Virus record (IMG/VR): IMGVR_UViG_3300032249_000628
Location: 6,970 to 70,969 of that record
Reading direction: 5' to 3' (one strand)
Length of the DNA stretch: 64,000 bases
Source: a virus
The notes under the pieces were generated by a model. That model was given only the letters and a program-made list of their open reading frames with translations, was not told where the DNA came from and did no database searches. Below are positions 1,719 to 18,800 of this stretch, in pieces; the first letter of the stretch is position 1, and the number at the start of each line of letters is the position of its first letter. The position numbers and the translations under genes are program-made.

Positions 1719-2585
1719 ATGTCACAGGACAAGGAAAAGAAAATTGATGTTAGCGTAAAAAGAGGTGATACCGAAGAAATCGTTAAAATCTTGGTTCGTC
1801 GCCCCAATAATGCTGTTATGTCTCAGGCACAAAGAGTCGGAGCAAAAGCTTGGACAGATTGCGTCAGAGATGGAATTATGACGAAGAAAGAACTAGAAAA
1901 GTTCATGAAAGAGCAAGATATTTGGAACGATGGCAAAGACGAAGAGCAAAAGAAGATAGTTAAGGAAATTAGCGATCTAGAAAAGCAGCTTTTCGTTAGC
2001 GGCACCCACAAGGATGGCAAACTTAGAGCCTCAGAGGGCAAGGATATTGCTATCCAGATGAGAGTAAAGAGGGCAGAATTACGAGACTTCATTGCTGAAA
2101 GAATGAGCCTAGAACAGAACACCGCCGAGGCTATTTCAGATAATGCTAGATTCGACTTTTTAGTATCAAATTCCACATTTTATGAAAATGGTCAGAAAGT
2201 GTATAAAGACTTGGATGACTATAAGGAAAATTCTGATGGAGAAATAGGTTTTGCGGCTGCTACAGCTTTGGCTTCGATGCTATACGCTGTAGATAAGGAC
2301 TTCGAATCTAAACTCCCAGAAAATAAATTTCTTAAAATGTTCAAGCTTGTCGATGACAATCTTAGTCTTGTCAACGATAAGGGTGAAACAGTTGACCTAG
2401 ATGGCAGAAGAATAGATAAAAGTGGTTATTATATCAATGAAACTGGTCATCGTGTAGACAGAGATGGTAATCCACTAGACGAGTTTGGAAATTACGTACC
2501 AACCGTGGAATATGTTAATGATATAAAGGAAGAAGTAAAGTCCGAAGATCAACCAAAAAAAAGAACCAAACACACGGCTAGTTAA
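1719..2585 (+). CDS. Putative tail assembly chaperone (G-like)
   Basis: AAGGAGG RBS; immediately upstream of TMP; charged and helical; paralogous to 308..1357. Confidence 0.55.
   Translation: MSQDKEKKIDVSVKRGDTEEIVKILVRRPNNAVMSQAQRVGAKAWTDCVRDGIMTKKELEKFMKEQDIWNDGKDEEQKKIVKEISDLEKQLFVSGTHKDGKLRASEGKDIAIQMRVKRAELRDFIAERMSLEQNTAEAISDNARFDFLVSNSTFYENGQKVYKDLDDYKENSDGEIGFAAATALASMLYAVDKDFESKLPENKFLKMFKLVDDNLSLVNDKGETVDLDGRRIDKSGYYINETGHRVDRDGNPLDEFGNYVPTVEYVNDIKEEVKSEDQPKKRTKHTAS
2370..2495 (+). repeat. Six tandem 7-aa repeats h-[DN]-x-x-G-x-x
   Basis: VNDKGET VDLDGRR IDKSGYY INETGHR VDRDGNP LDEFGNY, read directly from the translation. Confidence 0.85.
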
Positions 2586-2618: not shown

Positions 2619-5600
2619 ATGTCCAGATTCGTACTAACTGCACAATTACAATTACAAGCACCTAACAATGTAGCACAAGTAGTTCGCCAGATACAAAACC
2701 AGTTAAATGGCGTAACTGTTAATCTACAGGTTCAAGGTGCTGCACAAGCACAACGACAGATACAGCAAGTAACTCAGAACGTCAATCAAGCCACAACAGC
2801 GGCTGAAAGGATGGGACGAGCATTTGCTGTATCAGTTCGTCGTTTTGCCGCATTCTCTATTGCCACAAGAGCGGTAGGTTTATTTACTAGCACTCTTGGA
2901 GATGCTGTACAAACCGCTATTAACTTTGAAAGACAATTAATCAAAGTTTCTCAAGTTACAGGTAAGAGTGTTAGTCAACTTAGAGGACTAACTGATGAGA
3001 TCACCAGATTATCTACGGGTCTTGGTGTTTCATCAGACTCATTATTGGAAGTATCTACAGTCTTAGCACAGGCTGGTCTTTCTGCTAATGATACTAAAAT
3101 TGCTTTAAATGCTTTAGCAAAAGCTGCTCTTGCTCCTAACTTTGATAGCATCACAGAAACAGCGGAAGGTGCTATTGCTATTTTAGCACAATTCCAAGAA
3201 GGCGTTGGAGCATTAGAAAGACAACTTGGTTCTATTAATGCCGTTGCCGGTGCGTTCGCAGTAGAAGCTGGTGACTTAATTGACGTTGTTCGTAGAACCG
3301 GCGGTGTGTTTAAATCTTCTGGTGGTAGTCTAAACGAGCTACTTGCGTTATTTACATCAGTAAGAGCCACAACGCGAGAAAGTGCTGAAAGTATTGGTAC
3401 TGGTTTGCGTACCATTTTTACTCGTATTCAGCGACCCAAAACCATTGAATTCTTAAAACAATTTGGCGTTGAGCTTGTTGATCTTGAAGGTAAGTTCGTT
3501 GGTCCATTTGAAGCAGTTAAAAGACTTAGTGAAGGTTTAGCTGGTCTTGGTGAACGAGATATTACTTTTATCAAAATTGCAGAAGAACTTGGTGGATTCC
3601 GTCAGATCGGTAAAGTATTACCACTATTACAACAATTCTCTACTGCTCAAGCCGCACTGAATGTTGCTACCAAAGCTAGCAACTCTTTAAGTTCAGATGC
3701 AGCATCTGCACAAGCCGCATTAGCTATCAGAATAATCAAAGTCAAAGAAGAGTTTTTGGCCTTGGTTCGTAGCATAACAGAAACATCTACATTCCAAGGA
3801 TTTGCTAATACTGCACTATCACTAGCATCTGCTCTTATTAAACTAGCAGAGTCTATCAAGCCGCTTATTCCATTATTGGGAGCTATGGCTGCTATTAAAT
3901 TAACTAAGGGTATTGGTGGATTCTTAGGAGGTGTTAGTGGGGGATTATCTTCTGGAAGAACCTTTAACAAGGGTGGCAAAGTTCATAAGTTTGCTAGAGG
4001 TGGAATGGTTCCCGGTTCTGGAAATAGAGACACTGTTCCAGCAATGCTACAGCCGGGAGAATTTGTAATACGAAAGAGCAGTGTGAATAGGTTAGGTGCA
4101 GGAAACCTTGCTGCTATGAATGAGAATAAATATGCAGCGGGCGGTTTGGTAAATATAAATAGGGCCGCTTATGGCTCAACTGTTCCAGCATCAATATATA
4201 AAAGAGCTAAAGGACAATTTTCTGAATCTGCATGGAGGAAAATGTCTCAAGATGAAAGAGATCAAGCTGCTGCCAGTTTAGCCAATAAAATGTCACAGCG
4301 ACAAAAAACTAGTAAAAAAGATGCAGATAAATTAGCTAAAGATCGCAAAAAAACTTTGGATAAATATCCCGGTGGAGCATTTACAACTAGACCAAAAAGT
4401 ATCGGTGGTTTTTTTCTTACTCCAGAGATGGGTACAGACGGAAAGTATTCCTTGCCAACAGATAGGGTATTTGAATTAAATGGACAAAAAGCTGCTATCC
4501 TACAGGGATCAACCATAGAAAACTATGTTCCATTTCGTGGAGATTTAGCTAAAAATTCAGCAATAAATAATATTGTAGATTCTAATGCCCAAAAGGGTAT
4601 TTCAGATGCTGTGACTAATGCTTCTAATCAAATTGGTAATTTGCTAAATACATCACAAATTGCGATTAATAAAAATAGAATTCAGAAAGCTGCCGCTAAG
4701 TCTTCATCTGATAAACAAGTATATTCTACTCTTGGTGGATATATGTATGAGGGAATTATTCAAGGTTTAACTGGATCAAAATTAAGTGGTGGTCAAATTG
4801 ATTTTGATTTTAATAGTTTAACTGGCAATAATAAAAAATCTCTCTCTTCATTCTTTGGTAGAAATGAATCAGAATTTGCTGGGTTAATCAAAGCTGACGC
4901 CAAGAGAGCTTTGAATTCCAAGATGAATAGCTCTATATTTGATAAAGTCGCTAATAGTATTACCAAGGGTGATATGAGAGGCGTTAAAAAACTAGGTGAG
5001 CTTCGACAAACCAAAAAATATTTTGGTGGCTTAATTCAAAAATTTGCTGCTGGTGGTATGGCTCAAGCCCCACTAATTGATGATATTATCAATGCTAGCG
5101 GCACAGTAATGCCTCGTCCAAGTTCTGCCATAGCAGCACTTATTAAAGCTGGCGGCGGTGCTATTGATATTGATAGAACTCTAAAAAGAACGATTGGTGA
5201 CAAAGCTTATGGTATGGCTAAAACATCCGGCCAACAATCAGCAGCGTTAAATAAATACTTCCGCGATCCAAACGCTAGACTAAAAGATGTTACATCTGCT
5301 CCTCTAACAGTATTTGGCAAAGAACTACAAACAGCTATAAAATCTGGACAATTACAACCCGGTAAATTATCTATTATTAGTAAATCTCAAAGAGTGCCGG
5401 GAGTTGCAGAGTATCTTAGTAAATTATTTGGAATACCACTCGCTAATATGATATTCACTCAGGGTGGTAGCAAACAGCCAGCAATGGACGCTTTAAGAGC
5501 CAAGGGTCCAAGGTCAACAAGAGTTGCTAGATTTGCTACTGGAGGTGGAGTTGGAACTGATACCGTTCCAGCATTATTAACTCCCGGTGAGTTTGTTATA

Positions 5601-8600
5601 AACCGCACTTCTGCCTCAAAAATTGGTTACGGTAATTTAAACCGTATGAATAAAGTTGGTAGATATGCCAAAGGAGGCGTTGTTCAGCAATATGCTACTG
5701 GAACTCCTATGGTGGGGGCGCAACCAGCACGAAGTTCTAGTAATCCAAATATTGTAGCATTTGCATCATTGCAAGCACTTGGTCAGCAGGCTCAAGTTGT
5801 ATCACAAGCGCAGCAGCAACAAGCTCAAGCAACTCAACAAAATACACAAGCTCAACAGCAAAATAGAAGAAGTATAGTAGAAACAGCAGCAGCAAATAAA
5901 ATGCTGGTTGCATCTATGACTGTGGGCTTTTTACAAAGTATGTTACCAGCGCTTGATGAAAATGCATCTGGATTAACTCGCGCTTCACACAGTTTGTTAG
6001 GTTTAGTAACTACTATAACATCGGTTGGTTTCGCTTTAGAAGCTTTCAATATACAACTGAAAACTAAAGCTATTTTTGATTTTATTGGTGGAACTAAATC
6101 TGCTTCTCAAACCCTTAAGTCATTACCACAACTTAAAACACTTATGGGTGGTTTTAATAGAGGTATGTCTGGTTCTACTAAACAGGCCACAACAGCACTC
6201 GGAAAAGTTGGTCAAAATGTTGGTTCTGTAGTAAGCAAAGGAAGAAATGCAGCATCTTCTATCGGTAATAGGTTAGGATCATTTGGATCATCGATAAATC
6301 AATCTCAAATAGGTAGAGGATTTAGTGCTGGATTAAATAGTCCAAATGCTACTTTTGGTAGAATAGCTAATAGTTCAAGAGGTATCGGAGCAAAAGCTGG
6401 AGGATTTGTTGGTAGGTCTTTAAGTGTTGGTGGTCAAGCTTTATCCAGAATACCCGGAGCTGGATTAATTGGTAAAGGATTATCTTCTGCTGCAAGTTTT
6501 GCTGGCAGTACCGGATCGCAATTTACAAAAGGGGTCGGTGCTACACTAAAAAATCCTGCAAAAACTATAATCGGTAGTGGAGCTTCTACATCCGCACAAG
6601 CCGGTGGATTTGTTGGTAAAGGTTTAGCCAATCTAAATAAACTTGGCGGTGCAGCACTAGGTGTAGGTTTAGCTTTTACTGGAATAACATCAATCGTTGA
6701 TTCGTTCAGTGACTATCAAGGTCAAGCAAATAAAGCTATTCAAGAAGGTAATATCGAGAAAGCTAAATCAAATTCTGTAGAAGCTGTTGGATCAGAGGCT
6801 GTAAATAGTCTTGGTTCATCGATCATAGCTGCTAGTGCGATTTTTGGCCCCTTTGGACTTGCTGCTGGAGCGGCAGCGGCTGGGTTATTAAAATTAGGCA
6901 GTGAACTTCCGGGTGTTGGTCCATCAATTAAAAAATTTGCAATTGGTATTGGAACATTCTTTGGCGGTAATACTTTAAATAGTATTGAGACATTAGCTTC
7001 TGCACAAGCTCAAGCAGTTAAAACGCAAAAGGCTTTTGAGCAAGGGCAAAAAGATGCAGCTTCTGCTTTAGAAGATTTACAAAATGGCACTATTAGTGCT
7101 AGTGAAGCTCTTGGTAAAATTGCTAATGTTCAAACTTCTAGACAGGCTATGCAAACGGCCAATGAAAAAGCTGTTGAAGCTAATAAAGGTAATAAGAGCG
7201 GGGCTGTTGGAGGCTTCTTGCGTGGTACAGCTAGAGTTGCAACACTAGGTTTAGCTGGATATTTTGGTTTAGAATCTGGCAAACAAAGAAATCAAAGAAT
7301 TGATAAAGAAAATGCAGGCATGATTAAGCAAAATGCTGAAGCCGAAAGAAAAGCATTTGAAATTTCTCGTCCCGTTGTTAATGAAAGCATGAAACGCGGC
7401 ATTGCTCAAGGCATGAGCCGCGATCAAATTGATGAACAGCTTGGTGCCAATTCTCCGGGTGCCATGAGAAGCAGAATGAGTCAATTAAGAATAAAGGCAT
7501 CACAAGCAGATATTGCTGGAAATACAGAAGAAGCTAATGCTTTTAGAGAGCAAGCTTCTATACTAGAAGAACAAGCTAGAGAGCTAGATAAGTCTTTTGA
7601 AAATTTACAAAAAGAAGCTGAAAGAACTCAAAAAGCTTTTGACGCTATGAACCTTGGTATGCAAGATGTTCAAGGTGCCGCCGCTGCCGCTTCTCTAGGA
7701 ATTACTAATTACATTGCTTCTCAACAAGCTGGAAATATACCATTACAACAATCATTAGCTGTTTTAGAAGCTAGCGTAACTTCTGCGGCTCAAGGTATTA
7801 GTAATGCTGATTTTGATGCTGCATTTAGTGACGCAGAAGCGACTCTAAGAAAATTTGGAGCAAATGACGAACAGATAAACAAGTTTAAGGGGAACCTTAA
7901 GGCTGTAAATGAAGTTCAAAAGAATTCTGCTACTCTATTTGAGGAAACAAAAAATGATCTCAAGGGAAGATTAAGTTCTGGAAGTGCTGATGACAGAAGA
8001 AAAGCCTTTGGAAACATACTTGGACAGAATTTAGCTAGTCAAAAAGATGCCGCTGGAAATCGCCTCTATGATGATGATACTATTAAGCGACTACAGGATC
8101 AAATTGGCACACTTAGCGAAGACCAAATAAATGAATTAGGTAAAGGAAACTTCACTGTTTTCGAACAAGTGATGGGCGATCTTGGCAAGAAAGTTCTTGA
8201 TCAAGTAAATGGTCCACTTAATGATGCCATAAAAATTCAAGAACAACTCAATCAGCTTACTAAAAATAGAATAGAAGCTGAAAGACAGTTAATGTCTGCA
8301 CAGCAAGAAGCTTTAAATGTGCAGATGGAAGCAAGAGATATTGAAGCAAAGTATGGCGGTAAAGCTGTTACGCCAGAAGAAAGACGAGCTAATATTGTAG
8401 CTCAAGCAAACGTACAAGCAACTGGAATTAGCGGTGTTGATAATCTTAAAACTGGAAGTGCTGCCGAAATTGCTAAGAGAACACAACAGATGGGAGCAAG
8501 ACAGCAAGAAATAGCTAATATTAGAGCGGCTGCTGGACAGGGTGATAAAGCTGCACAAGCTCAATTAGCTGGAGATGCTGGATTAAAATTAGAGGAAGAA

Positions 8601-9812
8601 GAAAAACGTCTTAATGAGGCTGCTAGAAGTCAAATACAAACAACTAGAGATTTAATCAAGGCCAAAGAAGAAGAATTAAAGACAATAGAGGAAAAGAATA
8701 AGCTTGAAAAGCAATCTATGGAATCTCTTATTAATGGAGATATAGAGAAATTCTTCGACCAACAGGCGGCGGTTGGTGCTACAGCCGCTATTGCAACGGG
8801 AAATCAAGACCTTATGAATGCTTTTGGAGCAACGGCTCTTGCTGGTGCTTATTCCGATATTGAAAGACAAAAAGAAGCCGGTGTTCAAGAAATATATGGT
8901 CAACGCATTGCTGGTCCGGGTGGTTTGGGTGAATCAGCCGCCACAGCAGCATTAGCAGCAAGAGGTGTTCAAAATCCAGCCGCAGCACAAATGTTAGCAG
9001 GAACTACTCCAGCAGAAGAAGCTGTAAAGAGTGACATACGCGCATTGGCTGCTACTATGAGTCCAACAGCTGATTTACAAGTATCAGCCGCACAATATCA
9101 ATTGGATGCTGCTAATATACAATTACAAGCTGCTCAGAAGAAGGCAGACGAAGCGATAAGTAATACTAGAGACAGAGAAATGGCACCACAGGTTAATCAG
9201 AGTGCTGAATCCGAAAGAGCTTCTAGAGATGCTGAAGCTGCTAGTAGGGGTCGTGAGCCTACAATGTTCAGAAATGGCGGAACCGTGTATGCAAATAGGG
9301 GTATCTTCGTTCCCCGTGGAACAGATACTGTTCCCGCGATGTTAACACCCGGAGAGTTTGTTGTAAGAAGAGAAGCTGTAAATAGAGGTAATAATTTACA
9401 ACTATTACAAGCAATGAATAATGGTTTAAGCGGTTCTGCTGGAGCATCAGCGGGTGTTCAAAACTTTGCCAGAGGTGGTAAAGTACAGTATTTAGCTGGA
9501 GGAGGATTACTAAACGGAATAGTCCAGAATATTCTAGGTACTGATGTTATTGGTATGCTTACCAAGGCATTGACATCATTTACTTCTCAAATGTCGGATA
9601 CTATCAAATCTTTACAAGATACTAAGTTTAAAATCACATTAGATAGCACAAATGTTAATGTGAATATTTCTGGAAATAGTAGCCTCCTTGGAGGATTAAC
9701 ACAAGAAACAAGAAGTGAAATCGCAAAAATTGTTTCAGATAAGATTAAAAATACCAGCGTTGGTTCTGGTGGTAAACTTGTAGAGAATACATCAACGATG
9801 CCCAAGGGATAA
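2619..9812 (+). CDS. Tail tape measure protein (TP901-like N-terminal core) with internal inserted segments
   Basis: 2,397 aa, rich in Ala/Gln/Gly. N-terminal TMP core (FERQLIKVSQVTG…LAQAG…ESAESIGTGLRTIFTRI). Three DTVPA[ML]LxPGEFV modules of the type common at TMP C-termini. Hydrophobic central segments. Confidence 0.92.
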   Translation: MSRFVLTAQLQLQAPNNVAQVVRQIQNQLNGVTVNLQVQGAAQAQRQIQQVTQNVNQATTAAERMGRAFAVSVRRFAAFSIATRAVGLFTSTLGDAVQTAINFERQLIKVSQVTGKSVSQLRGLTDEITRLSTGLGVSSDSLLEVSTVLAQAGLSANDTKIALNALAKAALAPNFDSITETAEGAIAILAQFQEGVGALERQLGSINAVAGAFAVEAGDLIDVVRRTGGVFKSSGGSLNELLALFTSVRATTRESAESIGTGLRTIFTRIQRPKTIEFLKQFGVELVDLEGKFVGPFEAVKRLSEGLAGLGERDITFIKIAEELGGFRQIGKVLPLLQQFSTAQAALNVATKASNSLSSDAASAQAALAIRIIKVKEEFLALVRSITETSTFQGFANTALSLASALIKLAESIKPLIPLLGAMAAIKLTKGIGGFLGGVSGGLSSGRTFNKGGKVHKFARGGMVPGSGNRDTVPAMLQPGEFVIRKSSVNRLGAGNLAAMNENKYAAGGLVNINRAAYGSTVPASIYKRAKGQFSESAWRKMSQDERDQAAASLANKMSQRQKTSKKDADKLAKDRKKTLDKYPGGAFTTRPKSIGGFFLTPEMGTDGKYSLPTDRVFELNGQKAAILQGSTIENYVPFRGDLAKNSAINNIVDSNAQKGISDAVTNASNQIGNLLNTSQIAINKNRIQKAAAKSSSDKQVYSTLGGYMYEGIIQGLTGSKLSGGQIDFDFNSLTGNNKKSLSSFFGRNESEFAGLIKADAKRALNSKMNSSIFDKVANSITKGDMRGVKKLGELRQTKKYFGGLIQKFAAGGMAQAPLIDDIINASGTVMPRPSSAIAALIKAGGGAIDIDRTLKRTIGDKAYGMAKTSGQQSAALNKYFRDPNARLKDVTSAPLTVFGKELQTAIKSGQLQPGKLSIISKSQRVPGVAEYLSKLFGIPLANMIFTQGGSKQPAMDALRAKGPRSTRVARFATGGGVGTDTVPALLTPGEFVINRTSASKIGYGNLNRMNKVGRYAKGGVVQQYATGTPMVGAQPARSSSNPNIVAFASLQALGQQAQVVSQAQQQQAQATQQNTQAQQQNRRSIVETAAANKMLVASMTVGFLQSMLPALDENASGLTRASHSLLGLVTTITSVGFALEAFNIQLKTKAIFDFIGGTKSASQTLKSLPQLKTLMGGFNRGMSGSTKQATTALGKVGQNVGSVVSKGRNAASSIGNRLGSFGSSINQSQIGRGFSAGLNSPNATFGRIANSSRGIGAKAGGFVGRSLSVGGQALSRIPGAGLIGKGLSSAASFAGSTGSQFTKGVGATLKNPAKTIIGSGASTSAQAGGFVGKGLANLNKLGGAALGVGLAFTGITSIVDSFSDYQGQANKAIQEGNIEKAKSNSVEAVGSEAVNSLGSSIIAASAIFGPFGLAAGAAAAGLLKLGSELPGVGPSIKKFAIGIGTFFGGNTLNSIETLASAQAQAVKTQKAFEQGQKDAASALEDLQNGTISASEALGKIANVQTSRQAMQTANEKAVEANKGNKSGAVGGFLRGTARVATLGLAGYFGLESGKQRNQRIDKENAGMIKQNAEAERKAFEISRPVVNESMKRGIAQGMSRDQIDEQLGANSPGAMRSRMSQLRIKASQADIAGNTEEANAFREQASILEEQARELDKSFENLQKEAERTQKAFDAMNLGMQDVQGAAAAASLGITNYIASQQAGNIPLQQSLAVLEASVTSAAQGISNADFDAAFSDAEATLRKFGANDEQINKFKGNLKAVNEVQKNSATLFEETKNDLKGRLSSGSADDRRKAFGNILGQNLASQKDAAGNRLYDDDTIKRLQDQIGTLSEDQINELGKGNFTVFEQVMGDLGKKVLDQVNGPLNDAIKIQEQLNQLTKNRIEAERQLMSAQQEALNVQMEARDIEAKYGGKAVTPEERRANIVAQANVQATGISGVDNLKTGSAAEIAKRTQQMGARQQEIANIRAAAGQGDKAAQAQLAGDAGLKLEEEEKRLNEAARSQIQTTRDLIKAKEEELKTIEEKNKLEKQSMESLINGDIEKFFDQQAAVGATAAIATGNQDLMNAFGATALAGAYSDIERQKEAGVQEIYGQRIAGPGGLGESAATAALAARGVQNPAAAQMLAGTTPAEEAVKSDIRALAATMSPTADLQVSAAQYQLDAANIQLQAAQKKADEAISNTRDREMAPQVNQSAESERASRDAEAASRGREPTMFRNGGTVYANRGIFVPRGTDTVPAMLTPGEFVVRREAVNRGNNLQLLQAMNNGLSGSAGASAGVQNFARGGKVQYLAGGGLLNGIVQNILGTDVIGMLTKALTSFTSQMSDTIKSLQDTKFKITLDSTNVNVNISGNSSLLGGLTQETRSEIAKIVSDKIKNTSVGSGGKLVENTSTMPKG

Positions 9813-9813
9813 A

Positions 9814-12800
9814 ATGAGTGATATTTGTTTATCTTGTGTAAAGAATTATTCTACTAGAATAGGCTCTGCTGGTAGCTTCAAAGCGAAAGCAATTGTCAAT
9901 CATTCTCCAATAATGAAAATTGGAGGGGTTGGAACCATTATAGTCAATAACTCTCTGAAATCTTCTAATGAAGCCAAGCTAGCAGCACAGGGGGATTTAA
10001 AGGGTAAATGTCAATTAAGTATTGGTTTACCGGCTTTATCAGAGTCTGGTATTGGAAAAATAAGAGGATCAGTACAATTAGCTAAAGCGAATCTATCTGC
10101 CCGCGTATCATCTATTTCCAAGATTCCTAATGTCAAAACTGATAAATTTGCAGGCTCTATAAATCAACTTAACAATATTAATGATTTTAATGCAACTCAA
10201 AAACTATATCCGATAAGAGATATCGTTACATCGCTAAATAATAGTTACTTTGTTGATAGTACCAACGGTACACAGAGCTTATTTGCCAATATCGATGAAG
10301 GTGTTTTTATTGGCAACTATACCAAGCATGGCAAAAATAGCAAAATTATTGCAGATGACAAGCTAACATTTATACAACCATCTTCTGTTATGAGCGATGG
10401 TGATTTTAGGTATACATGTGAAGTAACTAAGCCGATTGATAATGCAGAAGAGAGTTTTCTTTTTATTCGCGCCGCCGCCCCAACTTATACAAAATCTTCT
10501 TACATACCACCGCAATATAGAATACATAATATCAAACTGCTTGATCCTAGCGGCAACTTGGTTATAAAATATAAGGATATTTTTGTTCACGGAGATGCTG
10601 ATTATCAATCCGATTATGTGAACTTTGCCACATATATTTCAGAACCAGAAACTAATAATTTGTTGCTTCGCACTTGGGAGTCTGGTTATCCGCTGATGGG
10701 ATATCCAAGCGGGTATACTCTTAATTTAGATTTCTCAACTCAGTGTTTTTATGATCCTTTTTCAGAAGCTTTTAATAAAGGATATGAAGAATCCTGTGAG
10801 CAAGCAAATCTAGATAAAAACACCAACTTTGCTTTGACTAGAGAAAATTCTATAAGAATATCAGCTATAGAAATATGTAATAGTGGCGGCTATGACTCTG
10901 TTTTCTCTAGCGGTGTTGGAATCTTAAGAGATAATTATCTGCCATTCTATACGGACGTTGCTCCGATAGGACAAAGATTAACTAAGTATATCGTTCCTAT
11001 CGATATGATTGCTAGCGACGTTGATGTTGATATTTATCCAGAAGCATATAGTTTGTGGGAATCTAATCCTGACTCTTATGAAAATAAAGATAATAGTTTA
11101 ACTAATCCTACTAGAACTGCTTCAAGATTACAAGATGATTACCCATTCCACTATATCAAATTATTATCTAGCACACCACATATAGATAGCGGAAGATTAA
11201 CTCTAAGATTCACCAACCTTCCACCCAAAGCGGTTTGGTCGCAATCAGATGGATCATTCACTCAAGCATTCTCAAATAAATCATATAATATAGCAGAATT
11301 TGCACCATCAAAAGAAGACGATAATTTCTTTATAATCGATGAAGTATACTTAAAAGTAATAGCTAAAAAAGCTCCGGGTTCAGTCGATTATGCTTTAGAT
11401 GTTTTGGGATATAACGATGACAAATTATTGAATCGTACCCCAAAAATTGGAGCATTTTTACAAAACGAACTTGATATTAATCAGCGAGGTTTTACACCTC
11501 AAGTTTCTGGATTCCGACACATCGATGATTTTGGCATATCTACTCTTTCCATTTCAGACAAAGATCAAGTCTATATTAGGGATATAACTCTAAATCCAGC
11601 TAAAGATCATTATGAATTATCTCAGTCTCCATTAATTGACTCTACTAATTTTAAAGAATACAAAATCCCGCTTACTATATATGACGATCCTGTTCTAGTT
11701 GGTAAGTCAGTAGACTATAGAAATAGTTCATACATAGAAAATTTATTTGTTGATTTGTATCCTATTCCAAGCGGAGCAATTATTTCAACAGTACAGTTGG
11801 TTGTAAAGTACAAGCCGTCTAATGGCTTAATGCTCCATACTTTTGCTCAGGGGTCAAAAGAATTAACACGAAGAACAGTTAATCTAACACCATCAGCTAA
11901 ACAGTCTATTGATCCACCAATTTTTTCTAATGCTCCTTTGTCTTATATTTCTGGTATTCCGCAGGGATATACCAATGTAACAAAAACAAATTCTTCTAGA
12001 AGATGGAGAGGCGTTGGCGGCACTATTGTAAATGGTCCATACGATCCTAGAGCTTTTGACTTCTCATTTTATAATCCAGAAGTAAATGTTCCTTTCCTAT
12101 CTGGTTATTTTAATTTTAATCACACCACAGGAAACGTTATTTTATCAGAAGCTCTAGGCAACAATCTTGGTAATGTGAGCGGTCTATATGTTGGAGATTT
12201 GCAAAACAGTTTAATATCTAATATTGGAAATAGATTTAGGAATAATGATATATTCTCCACACAGTTGCCGGGATATAACTCACAATATAGAACTATAGAT
12301 TGGACTAGCTTATCTAGCGGTCAAATGAATTTTGTAAATGATCCATTATATGGCAAGATATCTGATTCTTATGAACACGCTGTTAGAACTTCTGGATCAA
12401 ATGGTTATATTTCTTTTCCACCATTTAATTCTGGGTTTCCAGTTGGCGGAAAGGGATTTGGATTTTATCTTAGATTTACTCCAGACGTTAGAAATAGTGG
12501 CGTAGGATATAATTTATTCAATTCTGGAGTTCTTGCTGCACAGCATACATCTAATCTAGGATTTATTTTATGCTATGAAAATGAGAATCTATGCTTAAAA
12601 TATCCGGGTGGTCAGATCAAAGATACTAGAAAATATTATGAGTACTCCTATCCTTTAAATGTATTAGTAACATTTGGTGAACTTGAGGTAAGTAATACTC
12701 CAAACTTATTTATTCCCATACAAGCTGACTCAAAATTTAAACTATATGTTGATAGCGATAATAGGGAATCAGTTTCTTCTTTAATTGGTGTGTCTAATAC

Positions 12801-15800
12801 AATTTCACCGGTATTAACTAGTAATATAACAGTCGGACACTGCGCATCTTCTGGCGTTGGATTAAATATGTTTGTACACGAAATAGGCTTAACGTCTATT
12901 GCAGTGGGATCAAATAATACAACCAAAGTCTGTAATATTGTACAAAACGCCCCAGTAGTTTCTCAGCCTTGGATCGATTACATAAATAATCCTCAAATTT
13001 CACAATTTGATAGAGAATCTGCTAGTGGGCTTGTTTTCCATCCATATGATAGACCTAGCCCGCTAAAATATATCTTAGCAGAAGACTTCTTTAAGTCAGT
13101 ATCCTCGAAATACATAGATAATGCAACGTATGATAAAAATTACTTATATGAATATATCGATGAAGATGTTTCATCTTGGAAATTAGGTGCTTTCAAAATA
13201 TGTTCTTTCTCTGCTGCTTTTGATAGCTTTACCAAACGTATAGGTAAAGATTTTATCAATCACTATATAAAGAGCAATGGGATATCTTATTCTGAGATTT
13301 TCGATTTATCTCTACCATCTAATATCTATGCCTCTGGATTATCATATCATACGCAAATAGAGAATGACTCTCTTAGAGTATTTTTATCTGATGTTCCAGA
13401 GAGTGGAAGTTTTTATTCTTCTCATCCAAGAATTTCTAAGACTTTACCAAGAGGTTATAACTTTGTAGAAGATGCATTGGTTGTGGACTCTATAATTCAG
13501 CATGAAACTCTTAACAATATATCTTGGTCTGATGGAAAAATTGGACCAAAGCTTATTGTTAGTTTGTATACCCCAACAAAAGACCCATCTTATGCTCCCA
13601 GTAAAAAGAATTGGGGTTTAGTTAATAGAGCTATTCATTTCTTAGAACCCTCTGGCTGTTGGCAAAAGATTAGTAGCACATTTAACTATCAAGATTTCTT
13701 AGACACATCAGAGCCTTGGGCAAATTTTGATTTTGATCAAAGCATAACTGAGTTTGATACAAAGTATTATTCTACAGATATTAATAGAATGTACTTGCAA
13801 TATGATCTTGTTTATCCGTCATCTGCCCCATTCGAATCTCAAATCAAATTACACTCGGTTAATGTTAGACTAGCAAATGCTCTAGTCTCAGAAGAGAATA
13901 TTAATAATGGTATCAATTTTTATTCCAATGCTGATAAGAAATGGTTAGAGGATATCAACTTATATGTTTATGGTCGCGGAGTTATGTCTGATGATCTAAA
14001 CTTATATACTAGCGGTACTTTTCCAGATTCTACATCCGGCAATTTCAATATGTTTGTTACCTCTGCTTATTATGCAAACGGAGAAAACATTAAACTATTT
14101 ACCTTGAATAAAAATACAATTGATAGCTCAACGTCACAATTATTTGGCGCTATTGCTGGAGAAGATTATTATTTAGGACCAAACCTCTACGTTTCTGGCA
14201 GATACAACAAGTTTGATGAACAGTCTTTACCCATTACCATTATCAATAGAATAGAGGACCAATCATCTAGCGGTTCTCTACCAATTTTTACTAAGAGCGT
14301 TGGATTGACAGAGGATACTAAATCTTCTATTATCTTACATATTCAAGCTTCTCCAACAAGATCGTCATTGGTATACAGAGAAGTTATGCCAATGTTCATA
14401 AATTCTCCTGCAATACCTCTTAAGGTAGACGGAGAAGATAACGGGCCGAAGATGAATCTATGGATTGATGGTAAAGATTTTAGTGTTACTTCCATTGATT
14501 CTTCAATAAATATGTTCTTAGTTAATTACCCAGCATTTAATGTAGCTGGATCACAACAAGACACCATTACTTGGAATAGCGACTATACTGGTAAAAATAT
14601 TGCTGTTGATGATAATAAATATGCATATTTAAATGCCAACGATGAAATTCGTGGCGTTGAATTATTATGTTACGGAAATTGTCAGAATACCGACTCTTGC
14701 TCAGAAATGCCCATTATATTGCATGAAGATATATGGTCCACACAAAATGATTGTGTAGACGGTGGCATATTTAGAGCTAAAAATACTTATACTAATCTAG
14801 AAACTAGCGGATTTAAAACAGACGTTGGGTATAGCGGACATTTCTATGGTATTAGAAAATATACTAATTTGATTCCACAAGCTCCTTACCTTGTTAATAT
14901 TGTAGGAAAAACTGGAAGTAAAGCCACCATTGAGTTACCAACAGAATATATAGAGAGCGAATACGGTATTGATGAAAATGTAATAAATAATATTACTGTT
15001 AATAGTGGATATACTAATTATACTAATAGAAAACTCACTGCTGATTCTATCTTAGGTAATCAATCATATTACGATAGACAAATCAATGAGAAGTTCGGAA
15101 AGTCTGTTGCAGTAAAAGGTAATTTGGCTTGTGTTGGCGCTCCGGGTCATAATATAGCATACACAGAGTATGATGCTAACGGCAATCTTGTTAATTATAC
15201 ATTAGATGATGCTGGAGCGGTATATATTTATCGTCGTGATAATAGACCAAGTGGATATTCTTGGCCCGAAGGAACACAAAAATCGTCTTGGTACTTAGAA
15301 GAAAGATTATATCTACCTTCTGGATTTTTAAAAGATTATTACGATAGAATAGAAACACAGTTGTTTTTCGGTGGACCTAATGCTATTCAAAGAAAGTGGA
15401 ACGTTGGACAAGAAGGAAGACAATTTGGGCATAGTTTAGATTTAGCAGTTTCTAATAATCATAAATCTTTTGGTCATGATAATAGAGAAGTACTTGTTGT
15501 TGGTGGACCAAGCGCAAAATGGAATAGAGATTTTGAAGACTTATATACTTCTGGTGTTCAAATTGGTGTTATAATTTTTACCGATGAATTTTTTCCAACA
15601 ATACCAGTACCAGGGCGTAGTCCAAGAAACTACTATTCTTATGAAGATATTCTAGAGACAATCTATAATAAAGACTTACTGTTTAGATATTTTGCTGATC
15701 CACCAATTCGTTTTGATGTCAAAGTAATTATTTGTGAACCTATTAAAAATACTAACACCATTGTAAAAGAATTTCCAGAACCAAAACCAGATTTTATCAT

Positions 15801-18800
15801 CAAGAAACAGATAGAAAGAATAAGGGGAATACGAACAGATGAGAAAGATCAAAGAATATTGAGTGGAATTAAAGAGGCTTTCCATGAAGCTTTCCCTTAT
15901 GATGAAAACAAATTACATAACAACATTCCGCTAATTCTAGGTTTATATTCTGACAATAGTGCTTCTATGAATAGGTCTTTAGGTAAAGCAAAAGACTTAT
16001 TTAAGAGTTACTATCTTGACTATAGCTTTGCTAGTGGTCTACGAGATTTTTATGGGGTAAGAAATTCTGGAGCATGTGTAGAATATACTTCCAACTTTGG
16101 CTCTGCTGAAAATTGGGTAATTATGAGCCAAACAATTTTAAATGATGTTCTTGATACCGGCAGATTGATTCAAAATGACCAAGTTAAATATTTAACATCT
16201 GGAGTTGGTCAAGAATTTTTTAATGAAAATCTATCACAATTTAACTACCCACCAGAAAGTGGTGGTAGAGTTTATATCTTTGAAAAAGAAAGCGGAGCTT
16301 GGAATCTTATTCAAGAGATAAGGTCGCCCAATATAACTTATGGCACACCAGACAGATTTGGACACGCGGTAGCAATTAGTGATGATACCGAAGTTATAGC
16401 TATCGGATCACCATACATTTCAGAAGCTTGTAAAGTATACGAATATAAACCAGAAGAAAAAGATAGACTATACGCCAGTCTATATTCTTGGTTAAGACAT
16501 AAGAATTCAATTACTGGAGGATTATCAGCAAAATATAGAAATCTAATATCTGATTACGAAAATTGGGCTAGTGCATACGGTATACAATATGCAAATCAAA
16601 TTTTATATTCTAAGATTGATTCTACAGATAAATTTGAAGCTAGAAAGTATTTTAATATTCGAGAATATCAAAATATCTACACATATGGTTATAATAGTAT
16701 TAATTATACTTTTGGAACATGGTCTTTCATACCAGAACACTTTGCTCCAACTTCAAGATTAGGCTATAGCGTTGATGTTAATGAAGATGGAACAGTTGTG
16801 GCTTTTGGTGCGCCAACAGACAGCTTCAACGAATGGGAAGATGGAAATGTATGGTATAAAAATGAAGGGTATAGTGACCCCGACAATGATGAAAATCTTA
16901 ATACAAATCTAATTAGTCCAAGCTGGATAAACAGCACAAATGCTGGAGCAGTAAGACTATTCGAAGCCAGAAAATATTATCCACATAATAGTGTTGTAGA
17001 ATTTGGTAAATTTGGAAACTTACAAGAAAGTATGTCTTTCCCAGAAGATTCTGGTCATTTTAATTATCTAGCTACAGCTTTTAGCGATATGAATTTCAGA
17101 AAAACAGAATTTACGGAAGTCAAGATTCCGCAAGAAGCCGGATTAGCATTTATTATAACGCCAGAAGTAGACGCTCTCAGTGACGAGGTGGCAGATAACA
17201 TTCTAAACTGGTTAGCACTTGGCGATAGGAATTTAGTATTAGTTGGCAATGATCCAATTTGGGAAAAAGATGGTATTTATGAAGATTCTAATGATATAGT
17301 TAACAAAATCTTAGAAAGATTAAAATCTAGATTAAGAATATTTCCAGCTAGAAATTCTTATGAAGCACTATCTTCTGGATGCTCTTGGGCATTACCCTCA
17401 TATATTCCACGTTATACAACTCCATCTTATATTCAGCCTATAATTACTAATGCATATGGTGTTGGCGATATTAGAATGTATCTAAAAAATAGTACAAATT
17501 TTGCTCAGTTTATGCCGTGTACATCTAAAAATGATAAGTTGCCTTCAGAATTGATAGATTATGGCGAGTCTGAATTTGAGATTATCAATGAAAAGTGTGA
17601 GTTACCACTTAAACATCTTGGAGATTTAAGAGCAGAATGGCTGGAAGTATGTACCACCTGTTTTGATGACAGGAAACTTTATTATCCTGTCAATTGGGCA
17701 TATTTATTCAGAACATATTCTCCCGCTTGTTGCTCACCAAAAGTTGGACCATTTAATTTGCCACAGCAAGAACCTGTACCATTGATGGTTGCTGGAGATT
17801 ATGTAATCAAAACTACAAAAATTCCAGCTTCTCCAGCAGTGTCTGGCATTAGACCAATTTTTAAAACTGTAACCCAAGAAGGTTCTTCTTCCGAAACTAT
17901 TTTTGATGCGCCCATATCCCCATCTAGCGTAGAATTTATTTGGAATTCTGGACAAAATACTTCTTCATATTTGAATCTTAATGATGGACAAATAAACTCT
18001 GATGGACTATTCTACACGCCAGAAATATTTGATGATCGACAATCTTTGATTATGGCAAACGCTATTCCTCAATCTGAAATGCTTGAACAAAGAGAACTCA
18101 TTTCTCCGGCTGGATATTATTGTGTAGAAGAAACACTTGAAAATGGATCGTCTAAGATTATATTTATCGCTGGGGTATTTACTGAATCAGAAAATAATCT
18201 ATACTCTGGCGGGGGTGATCGAAATCTTAATTTTTATGCCAATTTGGTAGGAAAAACTATAGAAGGAGAGTCCTTGGTGGCACAGCTTGGTGGCTGGACC
18301 AATAGAGCTAGTTTTGCAGAAGGGTATGAAAAATCATTCTTACTTGATCTATTCCTAAATCTTGGCAATGATGTAGAAGAAAACGTCACAACGATATCAG
18401 ATCAACACGATGTTTGCTGGATCGCTAATGCTGCCGGTATTCCATCTCCAGAAGAATTAAATCAAATCAAATCTTGGTTGAATCTACCAAACAAAAAATT
18501 AATTATTACATACGACAATACAACATCTCAGGTACTAATTGCTAAACAAATTTCTGATTTATTAAACAGTAGAATTAAGCCACTATACTTGCCAGTTTTA
18601 GATATATACCCAATAGTAAATATTGGTATTGGTTATTTCAACAGCAGGGGTTACTTAGAATTTAACTCAATTCATCCGGTGTCTACTGGACGGAATGCCA
18701 ATACATCTATAACTTATTTTTATATTGTAGATTTTGCGGGGTTTGTGCCTCTCGCTCTTGTGCAAGACACAGTTCCAATCTGTTATGATACACAACCAAT

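Follow-up and report, generated by a model that had tools for sequence, protein, structure and literature searches.

A repeated joint module at candidate cassette boundaries of a large phage tape measure protein, shared with lambda gpH

Results

The tape measure gene and its setting

The window analyzed here, a stretch of 64,000 nt, belongs to an IMG/VR record of an uncultured virus (71 kb, completeness estimate 43%). It contains one ORF of 2397 aa at 2619..9812 on the plus strand, on which all features described below also lie; its translation is the tape measure protein (TMP) P0001. The protein scores 89 bits against PF10145 (PhageMin_Tail, cutoff 33.2) over aa 126-313 and 98.8 bits against TIGR01760 (cutoff 28.8) over aa 89-425, and it also matches five PHROG TMP families. 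These matches place a TP901-type TMP domain near the N-terminus (2883..3893, aa 89-425), which is 45-99% identical in 120 homologues, wherever it is present. An initial sequence-only reading had called this ORF a TMP, which the family matches bear out; judged by them, P0001 is a genuine TMP of a large uncultured phage.

The gene sits within a run of large same-strand ORFs. None of its eight neighbors matched a PHROG family, and the only Pfam match among the neighbors was FG-GAP, in a protein of 3865 aa. Megablast of 50,697 phage records gave no match to a cultured relative, and tblastn matches in phage records were restricted to the N domain or to single modules of the type described below. 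Apart from PF10145, no Pfam model scored above cutoff in P0001, and no recognizable toxin domain was found in it.

A joint module in three copies

A module of 70-85 aa, [FY]AxGG...DTVPAxLxPGEFV...NLxxMN...[FY]AxGG, occurs three times in P0001. The DTVPA boxes are located at aa 471, 981, and 2236 (nt 4029, 5559, and 9324), and around all three the order is F[AR]xGG, 8-15 aa, DTVPA[ML]L[QT]PGEFV, ~25 aa, and [FY]AxGG. The module opens with [FY]AxGG and goes on to a hairpin-like core, D(T/S)VPAxLxPGE[FY]V, and the short helix IGxGNLxxMN, after which a second [FY]AxGG closes it. A reading of the DTVPAxLxPGEFV core as S24/S26 peptidase-like was dropped, the module being too short for that fold.

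Module M1 (3951..4175, aa 445-519) is composed of FNKGG, FARGG, DTVPAMLQPGEFV, a helix, and YAAGG (HMM score 92 bits). It lies downstream of a Gly-rich stretch, as does the module of lambda gpH, and its predicted structure has pLDDT below 50 save for one helix. Module M2 (5502..5708, aa 962-1030; 87 bits) contains FATGG, DTVPALLTPGEFV, a helix, and YAKGG, and module M3 (9249..9506, aa 2211-2296; 87 bits) contains FRNGG, DTVPAMLTPGEFV, a helix, FARGG, and YLAGG. M3 occupies the canonical position of a last module, again as in lambda gpH. Between M1 and M2, a bare joint, YFGGLIQKFAAGG (5019..5057, aa 801-813), has the edge of a module without its core; in P0011 and loci L051-L053, this place is occupied by a complete module.

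The [FY]xxGG motif occurs ten times in P0001 (aa 449, 458, 505, 809, 946, 972, 1016, 2217, 2283, and 2291), and YFGG is additionally present at aa 801. The sequence-only reading, which covered 3963-9510 (aa 449-2297 of P0001), had listed three DTVPA modules and most of these motifs; all are present, and those at aa 946 and 2291 are further ones. In 2000 composition-preserving shuffles, the mean count was 1.34 and no shuffle reached 10, and across the family there are 9.7 motifs per protein versus 1.4 in shuffles, which rules out chance or composition as the origin of the excess. The three module cores share only 62-82% DNA identity over 50 nt; what is maintained in the repeat is thus its protein sequence, and recent DNA duplication is ruled out as its source. 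In 24 diverse module copies, residues P, A, L, P, G, E, V, N, and GG never vary, and a junction motif, GGx[VI]Q[KR][FY]AxGGxV, is present at every cassette edge.

Two cassettes predicted to be globular

The segments between M1 and M2, which had been described as unlike the helical TMP rod, are indeed predicted to be globular alpha/beta domains, with pLDDT mostly 75-95. Both had also been described as Lys-rich. This holds for the first (11.4% Lys at aa 512-800, versus 6.1% in the TMP body), and the enrichment of the second is modest (8.3% at aa 815-970).

Cassette A (4176..5018, aa 520-800) gave an AF2 model with pLDDT 83.3 when predicted alone. Its conserved core, GGYxxEG...FDF...DAK, spans ~aa 704-765, and E711 and D730 show conservation of 90% or more across 61 sequences. 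An iterated HMM of this ~55-aa core matched 116 of the 121 members of the family, along with 118 of 139 representatives of other multi-module TMPs; a full-length profile found only 36 of the 121. The view of segment A as inserted, unrelated cargo, part of the sequence-only reading, is ruled out by these counts. Cassette A is instead one allele, and an extremely divergent one, of a single domain family.

The conserved pattern E711...FDF730...DAK762 was compared with the PD-(D/E)xK-type arrangement E...D...(D/E)xK. The best VIA-align result was Z 5.9 over 62 helical residues, with no nuclease match, in a fold comparison that covered chiefly model residues 142-222. The model had no fold match in PDB or BFVD (Foldseek probability below 0.1 in PDB, no higher than 0.30 in BFVD), and a protein atlas search returned unnamed clusters only, with scores of 0.81 or less. 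Cassette A is a domain of an undescribed family.

Cassette B (5058..5501, aa 814-961) has a predicted Rossmann-like, CheY/HAD-like fold (pLDDT 80-93) with DIDRT at aa 850-854, in which D850, D852, and T854 are near-invariant (DxDxT). VIA-align paired it with CheY-type receivers (Z 7.3, rmsd 3.1, 102 residues aligned) and with a class C acid phosphatase (Z 6.5, rmsd 4.0, 123 aligned). Foldseek, proposed earlier for each segment, gave no match for A; the best matches of B were the HAD phosphatases AphA and phosphoserine phosphatase, though at E 0.05-0.1. A sequence profile of cassette B found no HAD protein in PDB. Of the 121 family members, 114 have the cassette, as do none of the 139 other representatives, and it is absent or replaced in seven homologues, on account of which we abandoned the idea that segment B is a fixed core and not a cassette. 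Judged by these counts, the slot is usually filled by B within the P0001 family.

The TMP body and the C-terminal tail

The TMP body (5709..9248, aa 1031-2210), delimited by composition, hydropathy, and the spacing of M2 and M3, comprises ~1180 aa that pass from a Gln-rich start through a Gly-rich region to an Ala/Gln/Glu-rich, putatively helical part. Throughout the family, M2 and M3 lie ~1050-1450 aa apart. By hydropathy, aa 1125-1145, 1342-1363, and 1397-1426 are hydrophobic, and they are predicted to be membrane-type segments of the Gly-zipper kind; Gly-zipper Pfam matches in homologues fall in this part of the protein. Inside the body, a joint-like motif, IKKFAIGIGTFFGG (6924..6965, aa 1436-1449), is the fourth copy of a 'KFAxGG' nucleotide repeat family (D3), and nucleotide homology to locus L001 picks up again within it, at aa 1442. 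After M3, a C-terminal tail (9507..9812, aa 2297-2397 plus the stop codon) corresponds by position to the hub-binding end of lambda gpHC and may, from that position, bind the hub.

Exchange of cassettes among relatives

P0005 is 97-100% identical to P0001 throughout except in segment A (aa 504-806), where identity is 31%; variation between motifs with conserved flanks, which had been put forward as a check on homologues, is thus what we observed. Nucleotide homology to six related loci ends at aa 503-512, is back at aa 796-808, and ends at aa 1010-1029. At the bare joint (aa 801-813), both the P0005 identity and the nucleotide homology resume, and the high-identity block shared by P0001 and P0002 ends at M2. 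The slot of segment B is empty in P0008, holds an ART-like domain in P0045, and holds B plus ART in P0072, each cassette of this series being flanked by [KQR][KQR]FAxGG. PF03496 ART domains were found in the relatives P0040 and P0072, and an ART-like cassette with the pattern R...STS...ExE was present in 22 of 260 TMPs examined, P0001 not being among them.

Within 10 aa of a module or [FYW]xxGG lay 81 of 102 sharp identity transitions, with 14% expected, a statistic that is inflated by sequence relatedness and by uneven conservation of neighboring domains. It was obtained with 150-aa windows and stricter limits; 40-aa windows were discarded because in them the conserved module alone yields 'transitions'. 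The comparisons show the FAxGG edges to be sites at which relatives, as read from their sequences, insert, delete, and exchange whole domains. The proposal of the sequence-only reading that the GG motifs are recombination joints of an exchangeable cassette finds support in P0005, the six loci, and the P0008/P0045/P0072 series.

Occurrence of the module in other TMPs

The module profile matched 20,136 protein cluster representatives (E<=1e-3), and the best 150 of these had 3-11 matching stretches each. The family of P0001 itself has more than 1,800 members. Multi-module TMPs can be as long as 7,872 aa, with about ten joints, and PF10145 was found in all five giant module proteins scanned. The median start of the first module is aa 507, the spacing between modules is bimodal, and in 139 other TMPs the last module ends a median of 123 aa ahead of the C-terminus. 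Tandem-duplicated bodies were considered for the giant TMPs P0126, P0127, and P0130 and ruled out, as their units had no mutual similarity at E<=1e-5. Neither Pfam nor NCBIfam has a model dedicated to the joint module, so it goes unmarked in annotation, and we found no description of the module or of multi-joint TMPs in the open-access papers searched.

A profile built from 24 modules matched residues 733-784 of lambda gpH among PDB sequences (8iyk_H, E 2.5e-5), and the alignment takes in GEFV, IGxGNL, and the two edges, which in gpH are FATGG 733-737 and YATGG 778-782; a local module HMM gave E 1.1e-8 for gpH in a one-sequence search. The module system thus extends beyond the P0001 phage: lambda gpH has one copy. 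The family model TIGR01541 (tape_meas_lam_C) covers gpH 472-813 with 448.7 bits and had no match at E<=1 in P0001 or its three modules; P0001 is therefore not filed in the lambda TMP family, and only the short module is common to the two. The module was also found twice in the Douge TMP gp16 (PDB 8zdo; aa 964-1029 and 1412-1461), and the TMPs of Achromobacter phage JWF and Gordonia phage Yeezy likewise have it repeated or in an interior position. Only residues 1658-1699 of that TMP are resolved in the published structure, and the module is not mentioned in the available part of the paper (PMC13033339). The profile had no match at E<=10 among T5 chains in PDB.

In lambda, gpH matures to gpH* and gpHC by a cut in the module region during tail assembly, residues ~690-817 are unresolved in the structure, and residues 818-849 bind gpI; the available text of this 2025 paper describes the site of the cut and the protease as still not known (PMC12617516). 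A mass calculation, based on gel masses only, placed the cut at ~aa 710-737, just before or at FATGG 733-737. The module of gpH (733-784) would form the start of the C-terminal fragment gpHC, downstream of the cut.

Searches for a protease and for split genes

No peptidase family reached the Pfam cutoff in 12 neighboring ORFs, and Prok-JAB and NLPC_P60 were absent from the 71-kb record, which is ~43% complete. An upstream ORF of 288 aa had a weak Tox-MPTase2 match (E 0.0042, 17.3 bits versus a cutoff of 25); its translation has no HExxH, and it was dropped as a protease candidate on both counts.

Gene fission at joints was not seen among 101 module-bearing ORFs in the fetched loci. None of them starts at a module, and three end within 60 aa past one, one of these on a 1.5-kb contig. 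Evolution has therefore not divided the gene at the joints. Shorter standalone A+B proteins numbered three among 8000 scored candidates and were rejected as split genes: two resemble fragments or the products of frameshifts, and the third is on a 2.9-kb contig.

Discussion

TMPs are usually viewed as passive rulers that later help to form a DNA channel. In the model that we favor, P0001 would be a chain of an N-terminal TP901-type domain, cassette A, cassette B, a body of ~1180 aa, and a C-terminal tail, its units separated by a conserved joint module that would be the same element as lambda gpH 733-784. Cassette A exists as divergent alleles, and the slot after it holds B, an ART-like domain, nothing, or both. 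As parts of the TMP, the globular cassettes would travel inside the tail lumen and pass with the TMP into the host envelope or cell once the tail opens, and the joint would have a protein-level role in TMP maturation. We consider it likely that P0001 is such a modular TMP, in which lambda-type joints are the cassette boundaries and have in addition a maturation-related role that we leave unspecified. Weighing against it are the negative searches for a peptidase (in an incomplete record) and for genes split at joints, the low pLDDT of isolated modules, the placement of the lambda cut by gel masses, and the failure of TIGR01541 to match P0001. By analogy with lambda, M3 may be a processing and anchoring point, with a cut a few residues before or at its first FAxGG and the C-terminal piece bound to the tip; we put the chances of this at about even. 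That the internal joints are further cuts is doubtful. That they are uncut hinges, flexible or partner-binding, is a possibility we take seriously while stopping short of calling it probable.

If every FAxGG joint were cut, during tail assembly or after ejection, P0001 would be a true polyprotein that gives rise to the N domain, A, B, the body, and the C piece, and the released enzymes would be host effectors. The junction motif repeated at each cassette resembles the cleavage consensus of a viral polyprotein, the TMPs of lambda and T5 are each described, in the parts of the reports available, as cut once near the equivalent region, and an enzyme such as the ART-like cassette of the 22 TMPs plausibly must be freed to act. 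Against this stand the failure to find a protease in the neighboring ORFs or the 71-kb record, the lack of joint-split genes among the 101 ORFs, and P0001 itself, in which no toxin domain is recognized and the activities of A and B are putative; we regard complete processing of this kind as somewhat unlikely. The protease and split-gene searches also fit a protein in which the cassettes stay covalently attached and the joints are flexible elements that become folded once a partner is bound. Other TMP chains, the tail assembly chaperone, the tube lumen, and the tail-tip hub are candidate partners, and such joints would let globular cassettes thread between rod segments. Joints of this type would be recombination boundaries because they are conserved interdomain linkers. 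Isolated modules are predicted to be disordered save for one helix (pLDDT below 50), the module is unresolved in the lambda and Douge virion structures as far as the available texts describe them, and only the last module keeps a fixed distance from the C-terminus, which suggests docking. However, gpH, the one studied carrier of the module, is cut right beside it, as placed by the same lambda source and the gel masses, and the residues invariant in 24 copies, in a module found in 20,136 clusters, imply a specific interaction; uncut hinges or docking sites are in our view a credible reading that falls somewhat below even odds.

A pattern with no function at the protein level, resulting from Gly-rich composition or from DNA repeats that promote recombination, has in its favor that the TMP is Gly-rich in places and that short 'KFAxGG' nucleotide repeats (family D3) occur in it. 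It is very improbable, given the excess of motifs over shuffles in P0001 and its family, the core DNA, now down to 62-82% identity under a maintained peptide, and the conservation of the module from the P0001 phage to lambda, mycobacteriophage, and cyanomyophage proteins. A bolder generalization would make the [FY]AxGG module a recognition and processing element of TMP maturation across tailed phages, with the lambda cut at FATGG 733-737 and giant TMPs as polyproteins that deliver, through the tail lumen, a programmable set of free enzymes. A tail-associated or host protease would then cut each joint, and ADP-ribosyltransferases, the E/FDF/DAK domain, and the DxDxT domain would reach the host ahead of the DNA. 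We think this generalization improbable.

Returning to the modular TMP with lambda-type joints, its significance lies in a very large, uncultured class of TMPs whose rulers would be chains of units joined by one conserved element, with enzyme-like domains, ART-like ones in some relatives, shuffled at the joints. A module profile would allow giant TMPs to be parsed into units. As lambda gpH holds the same element beside its maturation cut, an old question becomes experimentally approachable in lambda, and if the joint reading were true there, with the cut at FATGG 733-737, a question open since 1983 would be answered. Were the joints cut, the tail lumen would be a delivery route for swappable effectors, with a bearing on phage-host conflict and on the engineering of phage tails and injection systems for cargo.

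Among known systems, lambda gpH (PMC12617516; 8iyk chain H) is like P0001 in that its module is preceded by a Gly-rich hydrophobic stretch and followed by a short tail. It differs in having one module, with KYEPAG in place of the DTVPA box, and no globular cassettes in 853 aa, whereas P0001 has three modules, a bare joint, and two cassettes in 2397 aa. In T5, in the portion of the report available, a cut after R1127 of pb2 separates pb2* from the muralytic pb2C; it falls between a hydrophobic stretch and this enzymatic C-terminal piece, which stays in the virion (PMC10038345). As described there, this piece exits with the TMP, a precedent for an enzyme-delivering TMP; T5 has one C-terminal enzyme, whereas the P0001 type has internal cassettes. 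Mycobacteriophage TMPs have embedded small functional domains, the Rpf-like motif 1 and motif 3; these published motifs resemble host cell-wall proteins and differ from the joint module (PMC1796659).

Variable toxins on a conserved packaging part are seen in MuF-toxin fusions, including a VIP2-like ART on MuF, in Microbacterium phages (PMC7302621), and polyvalent proteins, as covered by the available part of PMC5512222, are likewise carried in virions and join a conserved packaging part to variable enzymatic or toxin domains. ART domains are common to the MuF and polyvalent proteins and to the TMP relatives P0040 and P0072. According to the same partial sources, the MuF and polyvalent proteins are internal to the head and have terminal toxin domains, and the phrase 'tape measure protein' has no occurrence in the available text of PMC5512222; unlike them, the P0001 type has a tail tape measure as carrier and internal cassettes bracketed by a dedicated joint motif. 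Finally, the effectors Sle1 and Tme of actinobacterial CIS are TMP-like, modular, and ejected as cargo, and consist of a coiled coil and a C-terminal globular domain; the FAxGG joint and the repeated module that characterize P0001 are not among the features reported for them in the available part of that paper (PMC13277306).

The tape measure protein and its gene neighborhood

A single ORF on the plus strand (window 2619-9812) encodes a protein of 2397 aa (P0001) that is, by its profile matches, a tape measure protein (TMP): it scores 89 bits against PF10145 at aa 126-313 (cutoff 33.2) and 98.8 bits against TIGR01760 at aa 89-425 (cutoff 28.8), and five PHROG TMP families match its N-terminal third. 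The source record is a linear IMG/VR contig of 70,969 bp (CheckV completeness, 43%). Megablast against 50,697 phage records returned no cultured close relative, and tblastn matches, in 25 records, were confined to the N domain or to single modules.

The ORF directly downstream (window 9814-21411, plus strand), whose start overlaps the TMP stop region, encodes 3865 aa with FG-GAP_2 as its sole Pfam match (62.9 bits, best stretch aa 3510-3533); the ORFs of 568, 111, 1575 and 1187 aa that follow matched neither Pfam nor PHROGs. The ORF directly upstream (window 1719-2585, plus strand; 288 aa, acidic in its C-terminal half) may, judging from its position, encode a tail assembly chaperone. Its match to Tox-MPTase2 is sub-threshold (E 0.0042, 17.3 bits; cutoff 25), and no HExxH was seen in its translation.

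A repeated joint module

The sequence-only reading had described a DTVPA module repeated three times amid clustered GG motifs, and both features are real. DTVPA[ML]L[QT]PGEFV is present in three copies, at aa 471, 981 and 2236, and [FY]xxGG occurs 10 times against 1.34 expected (0 of 2000 shuffles reach 10); these include every [FY]xxGG of that reading and two further ones. A profile built on 321 distinct homologue copies delimits modules M1, M2 and M3 at aa 445-519, 962-1030 and 2211-2296, in which [FY]AxGG is followed by a variable Gly-rich loop, D(T/S)VPAxLxPGE[FY]V, a helix (xxAxxIGxGNLxxMN) and a second, often doubled, [FY]AxGG. The three module cores of P0001 share just 62-82% of their DNA, yet a comparison of 24 diverse module copies shows no variation at P, A, L, P, G, E, V, N and GG; selection therefore acts on the peptide and not on the DNA. 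In an AF2 model of aa 440-1040, the modules have pLDDT below 50 save for one helix.

None of the 24 copies had a Pfam match at E<=10, and the module is not represented by a model in NCBIfam. TIGR01541 covers lambda gpH 472-813 and does not match P0001. PHROG 35029 (function unknown) matches P0001 three times. We found no description of the module or of multi-joint TMPs in the open-access library searched.

Two globular cassettes

The segments between the joints, here delimited as A (aa 520-800) and B (aa 814-961), had been read as unlike the helical body (aa 1031-2210), and the same AF2 model agrees, predicting both confidently as globular domains. Modelled alone, A reaches pLDDT 83.3. Foldseek had been proposed in that reading for each segment. 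A has no credible structural match in PDB or BFVD (Foldseek probabilities <=0.30; best VIA-align match, Z 5.9 over 62 residues); B matched HAD phosphatases weakly, at E 0.05-0.1.

The sequence of A is hyper-divergent around a core of about 55 aa (GYxFEG...FDFP...DAKR). Searching with aa 440-1040 yielded 1,808 matches in 8,000 scored candidates; 120 of these, with P0001, form the family counted here. The core was found in 116 of the 121 family members and in 118 of 139 other multi-module TMPs, and in 233 of 252 instances it follows the first module. This shared core marks A as a component that is conserved though fast-evolving, and rules it out as random cargo. B is predicted to be Rossmann-like: in VIA-align, CheY-type receivers score Z 7.3 and class C acid phosphatases Z 6.5; its sequence profile retrieved no HAD protein from PDB. 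DIDRT is near-invariant in B, which is present in 114 of the 121 family members and in 0 of 139 other representatives.

Exchange of cassettes at module edges

Family members share a common plan: N domain, M1, a variable slot, B where present, M2, a body of ~1050-1450 aa, M3 and a C-terminal tail of ~100 aa. The relative P0005 is 97-100% identical to P0001 in all regions except aa 520-800, where identity is 31% over 72% of the region; it is lost between AAMNEN and KYAAGG and regained at IQKFAAGG. In P0002, A and B are 98% identical to those of P0001 and the body only 29-47%, the high-identity block extending from within M1 to PGEFVIN of M2. In DNA, the window aligns with six related loci from the upstream genes up to TMP aa 503-512. 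Across A the homology is lost, or weak (66%) in two of the loci; it is regained at aa 796-808 and stops at aa 1010-1029.

The slot after A is variable. It reads FAAGG, B, FATGG and M2 in P0001; is empty in P0008, where A runs directly into M2; holds an ADP-ribosyltransferase (ART)-like domain of about 230 aa between FATGG and FAKGG, before M2, in P0045; and in P0072 reads FAVGG, B, FAVGG, ART, FAAGG, a module and M2. The ART of P0072 matches PF03496 with 31.4 bits (cutoff 23.4), that of P0040 contains R...STS...ExE, and an ART-like segment was detected in 22 of 260 TMPs examined (E<=1e-50). B is absent in 7 of the 120 homologues listed. Where P0001 has QKFAAGG alone, P0011 and three loci (L051-L053) have a complete module; thus, FAxGG is a module edge, and aa 801-813 a bare joint.

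Identity transitions, scored in 150-aa windows with >=93% identity on one side and <=35% on the other, numbered 132 pairwise and 102 after collapsing. Of the 102, 81 fell no more than 10 aa from a module or [FYW]xxGG (14% expected), a count that is descriptive and not a test, since the sequences are related and neighboring domains differ in rate. At the junctions, the consensus reads GGx[VI]Q[KR][FY]AxGGxV. These alignments show that relatives exchange cassettes whose limits are the FAxGG edges, and the exchangeable cassette of the sequence-only reading is supported by the divergent A of P0005 and by the series of B, ART, neither or both.

Two further observations concern joints. A joint-like sequence, IKKFAIGIGTFFGG (window 6924-6965, TMP aa 1436-1449), lies inside the body right after the last hydrophobic segment; DNA homology to locus L001 is regained there at aa 1442 (motif IKKFAIGIG), and it belongs to a short nucleotide repeat family (D3) along with three true joint edges. 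It may be a decayed joint. P0124, a TMP-like protein of 722 aa on a 2866-bp contig, has the N domain, M1 and then B directly, without A, and ends soon after; this could reflect a minimal variant, or else a gene call that is truncated or frameshifted.

Distribution and giant TMPs

Among 1.84 billion cluster representatives, the module profile matched 20,136 proteins at E<=1e-3; at E<=1e-10 the number falls to 5,460, and at E<=1e-30 to 1,092. By this measure, the module is extremely widespread. Lengths among the best 150 of the 20,136 range over 1,026-7,872 aa, with 3-11 matched stretches. In 139 of the 150, counted here as other TMPs beside the 121 family members, the module HMM found 3-10 modules each, the first starting at a median of aa 507. 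From the end of the last module to the C-terminus the median distance is 123 aa, and inter-module gaps are bimodal, at ~200-300 aa and ~800-1200 aa.

PF10145 was found at the N-terminus of all five giant TMPs scanned. Two giants, P0126 and P0129 (7794 and 7872 aa), have ~ten modules and at least five consecutive units of ~900-1250 aa, each closed by a module; units showed no mutual similarity in P0126, P0127 and P0130 (E<=1e-5). As an extended helix throughout, P0126 or P0129 would imply a tail exceeding 1 micrometre, and the single chain may instead double back on itself repeatedly within the tail lumen.

Proposed maturation and delivery

The sequence-only reading also proposed that joints may be cleaved and cassettes delivered. 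Any cleavage is hypothetical, and a role of the joint in maturation and delivery of cassettes into the host are both putative. Several results speak against cleavage. No peptidase family reached its Pfam cutoff in 12 neighboring ORFs, none of 8 TMP neighbors was named by PHROGs, and Prok-JAB and NLPC_P60 were not found in the record (43% complete). Of 101 ORFs that carry a module in the loci retrieved, none starts at a module and three end within 60 aa after one; a search for shorter homologues gave three fragment-like proteins. The text of the paper on the mycobacteriophage Douge TMP (PMC13033339) does not contain SDS-PAGE, mass spectrometry, proteolytic or kDa. In P0133, a TMP of 3569 aa, aa 1457-1486 between two modules match Peptidase_M78 (IrrE-like) below threshold (E 2.7e-4, 21.2 bits; cutoff 22), and this slot could hold a peptidase cassette within a multi-joint TMP.

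Relation to known systems

Searched against PDB, a profile of the 24 module copies retrieved lambda gpH (8iyk chain H) at residues 733-784 (E 2.5e-5), aligning both FAxGG edges, GEFV and IGxGNL; on this profile evidence, the repeat and the lambda gpHC module are homologous. During lambda tail assembly, gpH is cut into gpH* and the C-terminal fragment gpHC (PMC12617516); a calculation from masses puts this cut in the region of aa 710-737, directly ahead of FATGG 733-737 or at it. In the Douge TMP, the same profile matches two stretches, aa 964-1029 and aa 1412-1461. In the virion structures, gpH ~690-817 is described as unresolved, with residues 818-849 binding gpI (PMC12617516), and the Douge account gives only residues 1658-1699 as resolved (PMC13033339). 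There is no solved structure of the module.

In the T4-like cyanomyophage Synechococcus phage S-SM2 (L103), the module lies in the middle of a 766-aa protein (L103 4005-6305; 'putative bacteriophage-related transmembrane protein') encoded between gp26, which it adjoins, and a transglycosylase-domain gene. This protein is likely a myophage counterpart of the TMP. Motifs 1-3 of mycobacteriophage TMPs, as described in PMC1796659, are elements different from the joint module. For T5 pb2, a cut is reported after R1127; it separates a hydrophobic stretch from a muralytic piece, which remains in the virion (PMC10038345). MuF-VIP2 ART fusions are described in Microbacterium phages (PMC7302621), and TMP-like effectors in contractile injection systems (PMC13277306).
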